This document shows, piece after piece, positions 22,162 to 24,898 of a stretch of 32,000 nucleotides of DNA. The notes under the pieces are model-generated. The model ran no database searches. It worked only from the letters and a program-made list of their open reading frames with translations, and was not told the DNA's origin. The stretch's first letter is position 1; each line of letters opens with the position of its first letter. The position numbers and the translations under genes were made by a program. This DNA is from Candidatus Nanosynbacter sp. BB002 (lineage in GTDB: Bacteria; Patescibacteriota; Saccharimonadia; Saccharimonadales; Saccharimonadaceae), in NCBI RefSeq assembly GCF_037013405.1, contig NZ_CP146064.1:750001-782000 (forward strand), read 5' to 3'.

Positions 22162-22917
22162 TTAGTAATATGGACTATCAAATAATGGTTTTGCGTCAGT
22201 CCCCTGGAGAGCATGGCGAACTTCATATCTGTGAGTGCGATCAAATACAGTAGCCTTATTGTTTACAAGTATTACGTTTATGTATTCTGGTAACTTATAC
22301 GACAATAGAGTTATACCCACCATCTCAATCGTCCTTGATACTGCTGTAAATATCTGTTTTGCGCTTTCTTGGTTATTGAAATCTGGAACATTCTTCTTAT
22401 TTCTAAAATCTCCGTCATGCTCATTTCCATTACGGTTGTCACGCAGATGATCCTGCCAGTTCCGCTTCTGAATATCAATAAATGATTTCAAGTCGCCCAC
22501 CTCAGGATGTCGCCTAATAAAGCCACTCATTTGCTGTTCATAGTCCTTACCCGCAAATATACATCCTATATCATATCCAAATGATCTAGTAAAATTTACG
22601 AGCCTATCCTTATAGGCGCTCCATAGGCAATTATAGAGTGAGTTATAAACTGCAGCTATTTCAGAGCTGGGCCGCGAATTAAAACCACTTTCTACCACCA
22701 CCTTGTAGTGATTCCTTGCTTCAAGGAGTTTTTCATAGATACGATCCGCGCAGAAATCAGCCTCATCTCTAATCTTGTCATTCTCTATTTTTTCTGCAGC
22801 TTTCTTAAATAGAAACCAAATACTCTCTACTTCTGGGTCACTAGGATTCCATTCTGCCCTTAATGAAAAAGTAAACTGTGTTTTATTAACTATCATACGG
22901 TTAATTGCCTTGATCAA
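22162..22917 (-). CDS. Uncharacterised protein, third gene of the ATPase/RloB cassette; contains an HEPN-like L-R-x2-R-N-x3-H motif
   Basis: 251-aa ORF, 22 nt after the RloB stop, with the same low GC. Motif LRDNRNGNEHDG has R162-H167 encoded at 22434-22417. I recognise no other family signature. The start is uncertain: TTG at 22917 or ATG at 22896. Confidence 0.55.
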   Translation of the reverse strand: MIKAINRMIVNKTQFTFSLRAEWNPSDPEVESIWFLFKKAAEKIENDKIRDEADFCADRIYEKLLEARNHYKVVVESGFNSRPSSEIAAVYNSLYNCLWSAYKDRLVNFTRSFGYDIGCIFAGKDYEQQMSGFIRRHPEVGDLKSFIDIQKRNWQDHLRDNRNGNEHDGDFRNKKNVPDFNNQESAKQIFTAVSRTIEMVGITLLSYKLPEYINVILVNNKATVFDRTHRYEVRHALQGTDAKPLFDSPYY

Positions 22918-22939
22918 TATCTATTCTTTTCCGTTATTC

Positions 22940-23566
22940 TCACTTTAGTTTAAGCAATCTCTCTACAAGCATAAAAACAGTAGTGGAGGGGTCGGCATTG
23001 GCAGGGTCATTCTTATCGCTCAATCTATATAGCTTCTTCGCATTTCGGATCGCAACACCTATCTTATCTTCAAGTTTGTCATACATTGACTGATCGTTCT
23101 TTTTATAGGCACCCATGATCTCTCTCAGCTTAACGATGTAATCAGAGCGTAATATTTGAGTGTCACAGTAATTAAAATGTAACAAATACCAAAGTTCAAA
23201 TGCATCATTAGAATATGCAACCCGCACTCCATTAGTTTTTGCTTTTTCAATCGCAGAGTTGAATAAAGCAACGTCACTAGGGTTTGCTCTATTCTTATCC
23301 CTGTCAAATACACACCAAACCTCTTCGTAATCGCCATCTTCTTCCATCAAGGCTAGTGCCCTATCGACTACGCTAGTATGTACCGCCCCTGCTGGCTCTA
23401 TAACTACATTCATGGTTCTAACCTTAAATCCCTTAAAATAGTTTGGCTCCGTCTTTGTCCCCTCACAAACGATAAGAATTCGCGGTTTAACCTCACGGTT
23501 TGCTGATTTTCTAGAAAGTCGACTCCTACCCCTAGAGCGCTCCCATGCTTTTGCCCTCCTACTCAT
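22940..23566 (-). CDS. RloB-like (Toprim-related) protein
   Basis: 208 aa. Motifs ILIVCEGTKTEPNYF, VWCVFDRD and VAYSNDAFELWYLLHF match the RloB family. The start is 9 nt after the ATPase stop. Confidence 0.8.
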   Translation of the reverse strand: MSRRAKAWERSRGRSRLSRKSANREVKPRILIVCEGTKTEPNYFKGFKVRTMNVVIEPAGAVHTSVVDRALALMEEDGDYEEVWCVFDRDKNRANPSDVALFNSAIEKAKTNGVRVAYSNDAFELWYLLHFNYCDTQILRSDYIVKLREIMGAYKKNDQSMYDKLEDKIGVAIRNAKKLYRLSDKNDPANADPSTTVFMLVERLLKLK

Positions 23567-23575
23567 TATGTTAAT

Positions 23576-24850
23576 CTATAAACTATTAAAATCCCCTATA
23601 TATGGTATTGCGCCATATCTACCATTTATATAATCTTTCTGAAATGAGGCATCTTTTCGAGGCTTATATTCCAACAATGAATATAAATGAGAGGAACCAT
23701 ACTTATCCTTTTCTGTGAACCAGATCTGGTCTCTTCTAAAATGGTTTCCTCGTAGAAGATTAGTGTCGTGGGTTGTAAATATTAACTGTGCATTCTTTTT
23801 ATTACTCGTCTTTGAATTGAAAAGTTTTACAATCTCTTTCGTTACGAGTGGATGAAGTTTTGACTCAAGTTCATCTACGACGATTGTTTTGCCAGTTTCA
23901 AGCGACTGAGCCAAACTTCCTGCTAAGGCAAATAATTTTTTAGTACCATCAGACTCTTGCCGCCGAAGATCAAACTCTTCAATACCCGACTCTTTACCGT
24001 TTTCATAAGCCTTACGACGAGTGATAATTCGGGGTGGCGCTTTTCCCCCACCTTCTTTTTCAAGGAGTGCATTTACACTCTCAATAAAAGCCCTCACTTG
24101 GTCAGATATCTCCAAATCAGCAGGTATCGCAATGGGCACGAAATCTCGCTCCTCGATAGCGATATCTTCAATTTGAACATCAAATCTATGAAGGATATCA
24201 AGGACCTGTTTCTTTCTCTTTTTACCGCTCTTGCCTTCTTCTAAGAGCATATCAGCAGTATTACTCAAATTAGAGTCTAACCCGCTCATAACAGACATAT
24301 CCTCAAACCACTCCATGATAGATTGAGTAATGCTTGCACCATTAAGCTGAGCTACAAATGATAAAAATAGTTTATCCTCTTTGATGCTATCGCTTAATCT
24401 TCTCCCCTCTCTAAATGAACGGCCAATAGTTATGTTTTGTTTTTCTCGAGTAAAAAGGGATGCTTCTCTGGTCGTCGGAACATAAAACAACCATTCTGAC
24501 AAGATACTCTTTCTGTCAATCTCAAAGCCATATCTATATCTTATATTATCCTTCATAAAAATTATTTCAAAGAAGCTTGGCTCATCTTTCATAGTTCTAT
24601 CAAGCTTATAAGCACAATTGCGTATTGGAGATTCCCCTAATACAAGATTTCGCATAAAACCAATTGCTCGAACAAAATTTGTCTTGCCGCTACCATTGGC
24701 ACCATAAACGGCCGCACTCTTAAGAACGCGCCTATTGTTAACTGGAAAAGTATTATCGTCTTCATGTGTCTTATCATTTGAAGCAAGCATACTAAATTCG
24801 GCCATTTCTTTAAATGATAGGCAGTTTGCAGTTCTAAATTCTATGAGCAT
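23576..24850 (-). CDS. ABC-like AAA ATPase (AAA_15/AAA_21, RloA/AbiLi/OLD-ATPase-like)
   Basis: Walker A GANGSGKTN, signature-like SDGTKKLF, Walker B IVVDELESKLHP, H-loop LIFTTHDTNLL. The true start is probably the ATG at 24850 (MLIEFRTANCLSFKE) behind TAAGGAG. The longer track ORF (to 24898) begins upstream of the predicted promoter's transcription start. Confidence 0.85.
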   Translation of the reverse strand: MLIEFRTANCLSFKEMAEFSMLASNDKTHEDDNTFPVNNRRVLKSAAVYGANGSGKTNFVRAIGFMRNLVLGESPIRNCAYKLDRTMKDEPSFFEIIFMKDNIRYRYGFEIDRKSILSEWLFYVPTTREASLFTREKQNITIGRSFREGRRLSDSIKEDKLFLSFVAQLNGASITQSIMEWFEDMSVMSGLDSNLSNTADMLLEEGKSGKKRKKQVLDILHRFDVQIEDIAIEERDFVPIAIPADLEISDQVRAFIESVNALLEKEGGGKAPPRIITRRKAYENGKESGIEEFDLRRQESDGTKKLFALAGSLAQSLETGKTIVVDELESKLHPLVTKEIVKLFNSKTSNKKNAQLIFTTHDTNLLRGNHFRRDQIWFTEKDKYGSSHLYSLLEYKPRKDASFQKDYINGRYGAIPYIGDFNSL

Positions 24851-24869
24851 AAATTTCTCCTTACCTGAA

Positions 24870-24898
24870 ATTATACCAAAATATACACTAAAATGCAA
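24870..24898 (-). promoter_or_regulatory. Near-consensus sigma70-type promoter of the ATPase-RloB-unknown cassette
   Basis: Minus strand reads TTGCAT (24898-24893), 17-nt spacer, TGgTATAAT (extended -10, TATAAT at 24875-24870). The AAGGAG RBS and ATG follow about 20 nt downstream. Confidence 0.55.

Follow-up and report, generated by a model that had tools for sequence, protein, structure and literature searches.

Does the third gene of a compact defense operon belong to the system encoded by the two genes in front of it, or is it a module in its own right? The question is raised by three minus-strand genes of low guanine-plus-cytosine (GC) content in the chromosome of Candidatus Nanosynbacter sp. 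BB002, which lie within a 32,000-nucleotide (nt) stretch of DNA (contig NZ_CP146064.1, positions 750,001 to 782,000), here called the window. Three tightly packed open reading frames (ORFs) were found there, at 23576-24898, 22940-23566, and 22162-22917. The original prediction had read them as an ABC-like ATPase, a RloB protein, and a third protein of no recognizable family, together forming a three-component variant of such ATPase/Toprim pairs. Our comparisons indicate that the first two genes are a known AbiL pair and suggest that the third, termed gene 3, is a separately mobile module that attaches behind various defense genes, not an AbiL-specific subunit. We assign this reading, which rests on sequence comparison, a probability of roughly 0.55. 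The cassette as a whole is best read as a lineage-specific variant, consisting of the known AbiL pair and an attached HEPN-like gene, and not as a new category of system. Its genes are as follows.

23576..24850, minus strand: gene 1, AbiLi, ABC/AAA_21 ATPase of 424 amino acids (aa), assigned by profile matches and motifs
22940..23566, minus strand: gene 2, AbiLii, RloB-family Toprim-like protein of 208 aa, assigned by profile matches and motifs
22162..22896, minus strand: gene 3, 244 aa, uncurated family, mostly helical and HEPN-like, start placed at ATG 22896 by homologues

The predicted ORFs and gaps were reproduced, with 9 nt separating genes 1 and 2 and 22 nt separating genes 2 and 3 when the latter is counted from TTG 22917, where its longest ORF would begin. 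Two boundaries had to be corrected. Homologues of gene 3 are 244 aa long and start at ATG 22896, so that the second gap is 43 nt rather than 22 nt. The upper boundary, 24898, lies in the −35 hexamer of a putative promoter: the TTG at which the longest ORF of gene 1 begins is the first three bases of that hexamer. Gene 1 begins instead at ATG 24850, and the resulting 424-aa protein agrees with the 426-aa genes called in relatives.

Gene 1 matched the PADLOC AbiLi profile PDLC02335 (E = 4.7e-102) far better than Pfam AAA_21 (E = 1.1e-44; score of 154 bits, cut-off 27). It contains Walker A GANGSGKT at aa 50, SDGTKKLF at aa 300, Walker B IVVDELE at aa 323 (IVVDELESKLHP at aa 323), and FTTHD at aa 358; the Walker A, signature-like, Walker B, and H-loop motifs are invariant among six close homologues. 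Gene 2 matched Pfam RloB PF13707 (E = 3.8e-47; score of 161.5 bits, cut-off 31.5) and the PADLOC AbiLii profile PDLC02337 (E = 1.8e-32). It contains CEGTKTEPNYF at aa 34, FDRD at aa 87, and AYSNDAFELWYLLHF at aa 117, and the Glu of CEGTKTE and the acidic residues of FDRD are assumed, from the family, to be catalytic. All seven predicted motifs were thus in place, both family assignments were borne out, and the suggested link to lactococcal AbiL was confirmed by PADLOC, in which AbiLi and AbiLii were the best matches. The two proteins, with 424 and 208 aa, are of ordinary length for their families and have no extra domain compared with two-gene relatives. Their 9-nt gap compares with −53 to +16 nt in most of the distant pairs surveyed, with a few outliers. 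The sequence-level features that define AbiL are all found: genes 1 and 2 are the known two-gene system, described as an ABC ATPase with a TOPRIM/OLD-like partner and grouped with PARIS and RloAB (PMC13064643, a 2026 review). The pair itself is therefore not new; tools for genome annotation, PADLOC among them, would pick it up.

Membership in PARIS was considered and rejected, since gene 2 gave no AriB match in PADLOC. Gene 1 matched AriA (E = 1.7e-41, 304-position model) over residues 46-366 and model positions 2-303. Because the match to Pfam AAA_21 spans these very stretches of protein and model, the AriA match looks generic. AbiLii and AriB have been reported to superimpose poorly (PMC13064643).

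To what extent does gene 3 follow such pairs? Scanning a metagenome collection with an AbiLi alignment returned 80 loci, 4 of them close to the window copy (81-91% identity) and 76 at 36-44%. ORFs were called in all 80 and searched with hidden Markov models of the gene 3 family. Gene 3 was present in all three close loci that had downstream room. No relative of it occurred anywhere in the locus, within ~6 kb, in any of 40 distant AbiLi-RloB pairs (36-44% identity, at least 800 bp of downstream sequence). In 28 of these 40, no co-directional ORF lay within 200 bp of RloB. The third ORFs of the other 12 were unrelated (aldehyde dehydrogenase, PNP, PKD, cytochrome D1, AlbA_2, TIR_2, and MazG-like proteins). 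The notion of a third gene conserved across AbiL generally was rejected on these two grounds. Some of the genes behind distant pairs are themselves of defense type, namely, TIR_2 in L103 (2219-3163), Schlafen/AlbA_2 with HATPase_c_4 in L050 (6914-8068), and a MazG-like gene in L071 (2777-3133); L numbers denote loci throughout. Evidently, AbiL pairs often reside in defense islands with varying neighbors.

The converse survey started from gene 3. Neighborhoods were examined for relatives at 37 to 93% identity to the window copy, with the following arrangements.

87-93% identity, L011-13 and L017-19 (plus L027 and L028 from the metagenome AbiLi scan): same trio at the same chromosomal site
73-76%, L009, L021, and L029: AbiLi-AbiLii-TPR-HEPN_LA2681 (510 aa)-gene 3 at another site
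76%, L020: TPR-HEPN-gene 3 behind a HerA/DUF87-like ATPase, without AbiL
68%, L107: gene 3 located 18 nt behind a NucS_C/PD-(D/E)xK-like gene, with an ABC-3C system nearby
64%, L014: gene 3 between AspRS and Ham1
62%, L110: gene 3 located 11 nt after a 508-aa HEPN_LA2681 gene, with DNA methylase, SNF2 helicase, and NOV_C beside it and no ATPase
56%, L023: gene 3 followed by an AAA_15/21 ATPase
53%, L022: AAA_13 ATPase-TPR-HEPN_LA2681-gene 3
37-60%, other loci: gene 3 alone, beside glyoxalase, SodA, G6PD, or unknown genes

Gene 3 is accordingly tied to AbiL only at 73% or more identity to the window copy, in one narrow Saccharibacteria clade. It stands solitary in at least six contexts besides the TPR-HEPN and NucS-like ones. 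Several of the loci at 37-60% adjoin recombinases, insertion sequence elements, or restriction-modification genes, and in L009 a large serine recombinase lies ~2.5 kb upstream. The survey proposed in the original prediction therefore did find gene 3 homologues beside ATPase/RloB pairs, and no named three-gene system matched the trio, as had been supposed. A three-component AbiL variant as a type of system was not upheld, given the confinement to one clade, the 40 distant pairs, and the location of most relatives elsewhere.

The trio could still be a true three-component system within its clade, with gene 3 wired into AbiL as a second effector, an RNase, or as a sensor or adaptor under AbiLi control; the ATPase would then have two nucleases, one Toprim-like and one HEPN. 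In every close relative (L011-13, L017-19, L027, and L028), the trio is kept as a tight operon, no internal promoter or terminator was found in the window copy, and the link between AbiL and gene 3 persists at a second genomic location in the sister lineage. ABC ATPases are also known to be paired with or fused to HEPN nucleases, as in PrrC and RloC (PMC3710099) and the AAA-HEPN node of NetFlax (PMC10440598). We nevertheless consider integral membership unlikely and favor the module reading over it. Besides the 40 distant pairs that do without gene 3, relatives of 64% or less identity never adjoin an AbiL pair, and L020 retains TPR-HEPN and gene 3 without AbiL. Moreover, neither AbiLi nor AbiLii has an extra domain with which to dock a third protein, and the whole linkage to AbiL goes back to one ancestral event.

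That event can be approached by comparison with the sister lineage, with which the window shares the entire cassette.

22160..24951, minus strand: cassette common to the sister lineage (L009, L021, and L029), found by blastn, starting ~50 nt ahead of the −35 hexamer and ending with the stop codon of gene 3

The blastn alignment consists of one block at 22928-24951 (80-81% identity) and another at 22160-22906 (77-78%). They separate exactly at the spacer between genes 2 and 3, the site at which the sister cassette holds its 1.5-kb TPR-HEPN_LA2681 gene. The three genes show comparable synonymous divergence (dS) from one lineage to the other (0.85-1.5). The ratio of nonsynonymous to synonymous divergence (dN/dS) is 0.08-0.18 for gene 1, 0.05-0.15 for gene 2, and 0.12-0.25 for gene 3, and no copy contains an internal stop codon. 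Taken together, the similar dS, low dN/dS, and absence of internal stops indicate that all three genes are functional and have diverged together since the lineages split. The like dS values and the purifying selection suit an integral subunit as well. In a neighbor-joining tree of gene 3, arrangements of TPR-HEPN with gene 3 are both basal (L022 and L110) and sister to the window clade. TPR-HEPN with gene 3 would then be the older pairing, joined to AbiL once. The ancestor of the window and sister clades would have acquired AbiLi-AbiLii-TPR-HEPN-gene 3, and the window lineage would later have lost the TPR-HEPN gene and kept gene 3. Loss of the TPR-HEPN gene is the most likely origin of the trio, with the order of gain and loss inferred from these comparisons. 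A search of the window for a relic of the TPR-HEPN gene found none.

This presumed older partner is the commonest immediate upstream neighbor of gene 3 relatives (L009, L020, L021, L022, L029, and L110). The TPR-HEPN_LA2681 protein has 508-518 aa and its own RNALTH motif, and its gene directly precedes gene 3 with gaps of 11-14 nt. The pairing occurs in four genomic contexts, at 53-78% gene 3 identity, with or without AbiL, and spans the following positions.

L009 5454-7735; L021 4807-7087; L029 7910-10190: TPR-HEPN plus gene 3
L020 807-3087; L110 4463-6726; L022 4434-6740: TPR-HEPN plus gene 3

LA2681 has been described only as "fused to TPR, in operon with TPR," with no mention of a gene 3-like partner (PMC3710099). 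Judging from its recurrence in sequence, the pair may be an undescribed two-gene HEPN module. A more elaborate proposal is that gene 3 and TPR-HEPN_LA2681 form a two-protein HEPN module, possibly a heterodimeric RNase, placed behind varied NTPase sensors (AbiLi/AbiLii, an AAA_13 ATPase, or a HerA-like ATPase), and that in the window TPR-HEPN was lost and gene 3 was rewired to AbiL. We hold this to be rather unlikely. If true, the cassette would be a working ATPase, Toprim, and HEPN system with two nuclease effectors.

Further genes lie behind the pair in some islands. In L021 (7146-7718, 190 aa) and L020 (3100-3555, 151 aa), gene 3 is followed by ORFs that are 89% identical to each other, give no Pfam match, and contain RDNLTH, an Rx4H-type motif; these islands may hold three successive HEPN-like genes. 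In L009 (7791-8375) and L110 (6760-7359), the next gene encodes a predicted membrane protein 194-199 aa long, of which the two versions are 66% identical and match Pfam membrane-protein families only weakly. This protein is absent from the window, and the two loci otherwise share only TPR-HEPN and gene 3.

What kind of protein does gene 3 encode? Searches against Pfam, PADLOC, NCBIfam, PHROGs, and PDB sequences gave no usable match; a PHROG match at E = 0.09 was at chance level. In a collection of 5.8 billion proteins, 51 homologues were found, none with a Pfam domain, and an exhaustive profile search of 1.84 billion cluster representatives yielded 136 relatives at E ≤ 0.001. A second database search with the deep gene 3 profile returned the same family only and no bridge to curated HEPN families. 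The statement that gene 3 lacks a recognizable family holds as far as curated families go, but the protein does carry a HEPN-type RNxxxH signature.

22417..22434, minus strand: RNxxxH codons, R155-N156-G-N-E-H160 of gene 3, from alignments of relatives

The signature lies in the most conserved block of the protein, WQDxLRDNRNxxEHDGDxR. R155, N156, and H160 are invariant among 28 sequences at 34-93% identity. Among 65 representatives at ~20% identity, only the R155 column never varies, and conservation of N156 and H160 is 90% or higher. The AlphaFold2 model of gene 3 is confident, with a pLDDT (predicted local distance difference test) score of 89.4 and a pTM (predicted template modeling) score of 0.87. 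It comprises long helices at residues 40-68, 77-104, 136-159, and 176-199, short helices at 110-129, and a C-terminal β-hairpin. RNxxxH stands at the end of helix 136-159 (helix 3), before the loop to helix 176-199. In HEPN domains, the Arg is usually followed by N, D, or H, and helices 2 and 3 commonly have an insert between them (PMC3710099). Gene 3 has the Rx4-6H motif with a polar residue after the Arg that serves as the HEPN criterion in the same source. Its layout, compared by the order of secondary-structure elements alone and not by three-dimensional superposition, agrees with the published description, that is, a motif ending a long helix, followed by a loop and a helix, with an insert between helices 2 and 3 (PMC3710099). 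Of the 28 members, 10 matched HEPN_Apea below threshold (the best at E = 3.6e-4 with 21.4 bits, where the cut-off is 24.4), two matched HEPN_Swt1, and two matched DUF4145; all of these weak matches fall at residues ~115-170. From the sequence and the model, we consider it likely that gene 3 is a divergent HEPN RNase with RNxxxH as its active site. The family, of 136 cluster representatives, is new, small, uncurated, and probably of HEPN type.

The HEPN link gained nothing from a scan of the 65 distant relatives with Pfam and PADLOC. Two further assignments were tried and rejected. A HEPN-MNT toxin-antitoxin pair was dismissed, as no nucleotidyltransferase gene adjoins gene 3 in the window or in the contexts examined. 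The ABC-3C architecture (ATPase plus MComp plus CTD) was dismissed because genes 2 and 3 gave no MComp or CTD matches; a lone distant relative of gene 3 had a CTD1 match at chance level (E = 0.0056).

A conserved motif of this kind also bears on whether gene 3 might be inactive as a nuclease and act instead as a promiscuous regulator, antitoxin, or immunity partner of the nuclease encoded upstream (RloB, HEPN_LA2681, or NucS-like). The position of gene 3, repeatedly 11-43 nt downstream of different nuclease-type genes, invites this idea; hyperpromiscuous partners of varied toxins are documented (PMC10440598), and two adjacent HEPN-type proteins might heterodimerize. However, an invariant R155 with N156 and H160 at least 90% conserved across relatives of ~20% identity is a pattern typical of a catalytic site and not of a protein that binds varied toxins, and many members are solitary, with no upstream nuclease (for example, after AspRS, glyoxalase, SodA, or G6PD). 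Such a role is for these reasons quite improbable in our view.

Solitary members next to housekeeping genes raise yet another possibility, namely, that gene 3 is a Saccharibacteria housekeeping RNA-processing or helical protein unrelated to defense that stands beside AbiL by accident. Homologues do occur in such settings, as in AspRS-g3-Ham1, where the gap is 2 nt, and in the SodA region. The family is almost confined to Saccharibacteria: six of the eight reference-genome loci that encode relatives are in metagenome-assembled genomes of Candidatus Saccharibacteria. No relatives were found in phage, plasmid, and IMG/VR collections. On the other hand, gene 3 is as GC poor as the AbiL genes and shares their transferred block in two lineages, it occupies a different genomic site in nearly every lineage sampled, and the family is rare. 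Its neighbors elsewhere are often defense or mobile genes: a KAP NTPase with a methylase; ABC-3C MComp1 with an SMC-like ATPase; a DNA methylase with SNF2 and NOV_C; a serine recombinase with an EcoRI-type methylase and GmrSD; IS1595; and Replic_Relax. A role outside defense is accordingly very improbable. The sole named non-Saccharibacteria genome with a relative (L022, DHXK01000074.1, "Legionellales bacterium UBA5158," 53% identity) is represented by an 8-kb contig, and either horizontal transfer or a binning error would account for it.

Several observations count against a mobile HEPN-type module behind AbiL. Within the trio clade, gene 3 is always kept, with purifying selection acting on it. 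Its stop codon is the exact end of the shared cassette, which also fits a role within the operon and which a three-component system can claim for itself. None of the 28 gene 3 members reached a curated Pfam HEPN threshold. The order of elements in the AlphaFold2 model is HEPN-like, but Foldseek comparison of the model with PDB and BFVD returned generic helical bundles, none significant, and hhalign against the neighboring HEPN_LA2681 domain placed the motifs in register with a probability of only 1%. Direct repeats suggestive of att sites flanking the cassette were searched for in the window and not found, and no integrase gene was identified adjoining the cassette in the part of the window that was annotated. 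Finally, the mechanism of AbiL itself is still without experimental proof (PMC13064643).

Under the module reading, and by analogy with PARIS, the AbiLi ATPase would hold the Toprim-like AbiLii nuclease inactive until a phage cue led to its release or activation, and active AbiLii would halt the infection but sacrifice the cell. Gene 3 would add an extra, independently triggered RNase layer placed on AbiL's promoter, with R155, N156, and H160 as the residues used. Functional independence is suggested by the distribution of gene 3. Were it to act independently, the locus would be an ordinary small defense island. Were it a true RNase effector able to team up with different sensors, it would be an extra module for the defense toolkit, and the three-gene and four-gene cassettes would provide a natural test case of effector gain and loss.

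The putative expression signals of the cassette are as follows.

24870..24898, minus strand: putative promoter, −35 TTGCAT at 24898-24893, 17-nt spacer, TG at 24878-24877, −10 TATAAT at 24875-24870
24857..24863, minus strand: ribosome-binding site TAAGGAG, 6 nt before ATG 24850

The promoter had been predicted as near consensus. This is true of its −10 half, a perfect TATAAT with TG in front, and not of its −35 hexamer TTGCAT, which matches TTGACA in three of six positions. The weak −35 hexamer is also why a consensus promoter scan left the site unlisted; promoter-like sites in the region were no commoner than in shuffled sequences. The promoter stretch falls inside the block conserved with the sister lineage, and the ribosome-binding site, at 24863-24857, was found as predicted. 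No terminator-like site was found in 21900-25600, and the scan found no promoter-like site between genes 2 and 3. With gaps of 9 nt and 22 nt (from TTG 22917) or 43 nt (from ATG 22896) added to these two results, the three genes are probably one transcript from a single extended −10 promoter. Read-through from this promoter may reach the glycosyltransferase gene ~60 nt downstream.

The surroundings of the cassette differ from it in base composition.

22101..24999: low-GC block between the GT2-PMT_2-YkcB_C glycosyltransferase gene and the GtrA gene, from GC counts and neighbor annotation

GC content is 37.9% in this block (37.6% in gene 1, 41.5% in gene 2, and 38.4% in gene 3), 48.5% in the upstream flank, 46.9% in the downstream flank, and ~48% in the genome. 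Hand counts in the original prediction, of 32/100 in 23581-23680, 46/100 in 9101-9200, and 57/100 in 20401-20500, proved exact. The cassette is housed in a cell-envelope cluster, with GtrA (25000-25452) on one side, a GT2 + PMT_2 + YkcB_C glycosyltransferase (19488-22100) on the other, and genes for GalE, an LCP protein, and a LexA-type DNA-binding protein further out. GtrA and GT2/PMT_2-type glycosyltransferases typically cooperate in surface glycan modification, and the cassette splits GtrA from its GT2-PMT_2-YkcB_C partner. A tRNA-Asn gene (25411-25485) lies ~560 nt upstream. The low GC, the split pair, and the nearby tRNA point to a foreign origin, and the cassette is probably a horizontally acquired AbiL-type operon in a Candidatus Saccharibacteria chromosome. 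A ToxIN- or AbiF-like RNA component was looked for and rejected, since Rfam gave only the neighboring tRNA-Asn and no tandem array was present.

Other observations concern the same region. The GtrA-like ORF (25000-25452, plus strand) overlaps the opposite-strand tRNA-Asn (25411-25485). In the sister lineage, L021 also has the 3′ part of tRNA-Asn, ~2.8 kb upstream of its cassette, and the tRNA may be a hot spot for such islands. Alignment of the window to the close relatives L011, L017, and L028 ends at 25049, ~150 nt upstream of the promoter, while L019 and L027, unlike these three, align past 25049 into GtrA and the tRNA. Position 25049 is a recombination breakpoint at the upstream edge of the cassette. 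L019, one of the six Saccharibacteria loci from metagenome-assembled genomes, is collinear with the window over 18001-28999 at 91.7% identity. In L012, the RloB gene (4544-5170) was called as 157 aa, yet its tblastn alignment extends over 203 residues (96% identity). The start codon may have changed, or AbiLii may carry an early defect; gene 3 is intact there. At 25547-25903, the window encodes a 118-aa protein with a LexA DNA-binding domain (E = 1.4e-16), too short to hold an S24 peptidase domain. A second GC dip (0.37-0.40) at 4501-5500 covers a 152-aa ORF (4810-5268) with no Pfam match, which lies between a cutinase-VWA-PKD protein (2601-4769) and a 768-aa ORF (5395-7701), likewise with no Pfam match.

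How does the cassette compare with known systems? To our knowledge, Saccharibacteria are episymbionts with tiny genomes in which very few phage defenses have been characterized. New here are an AbiL operon conserved in Saccharibacteria and the recurrence of gene 3 directly behind different nuclease or ATPase defense genes, above all TPR-HEPN_LA2681. Genes 1 and 2 show the same arrangement as AbiL of Lactococcus lactis and RloA/RloB of Campylobacter, an AAA_21/ABC ATPase gene with an adjacent, co-directional gene for a RloB Toprim-like protein, and like AbiL pairs in general the pair of the window is a mobile low-GC insert. AbiLi-like ATPases, at 39% identity or less, were found on 186 plasmids and none in IMG/VR. 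The window departs from AbiL as described (PMC13064643) in its Saccharibacterium host, in an AbiLi no more than ~44% identical to the other AbiL pairs sampled (the distant set), and in the extra gene behind the pair, which the 40 distant pairs lack. PARIS, with its AriA ABC ATPase and AriB Toprim nuclease, follows the same logic of an ATPase sensor or antitoxin with a Toprim effector and supplies the mechanistic model for AbiL. In NetFlax, an AAA ATPase is treated as the antitoxin-like partner of RloB, TOPRIM_OLD, HNH, or HEPN toxins (PMC10440598).

Gene 3 resembles solo HEPN Abi and defense proteins (AbiD/F, AbiJ, AbiU2, and HEC-08) and HEPN_Apea in carrying RNxxxH where helix 3 of a helical bundle ends, and solo HEPN proteins in being a single-gene unit often found in defense islands. 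It differs from curated HEPN families in scoring below their thresholds and in its own WQDxLRDNRNxxEHDGDxR block and C-terminal β-hairpin. Compared with TPR-HEPN_LA2681 systems, the window lacks the TPR-HEPN gene. The combination of ABC ATPase, Toprim, and HEPN is a known theme, represented by PrrC/RloC, HEPN/TOPRIM-NTD1 fusions, and the AAA-HEPN node of NetFlax (PMC3710099, PMC10440598). As in PrrC, RloC, and that node, an ABC-type ATPase and a HEPN (in the window, HEPN-like) RNase share one defense locus; in those systems, however, fusion or direct pairing joins HEPN to the ATPase, whereas in the window the RloB gene lies in between and gene 3 is not specific to the ATPase.

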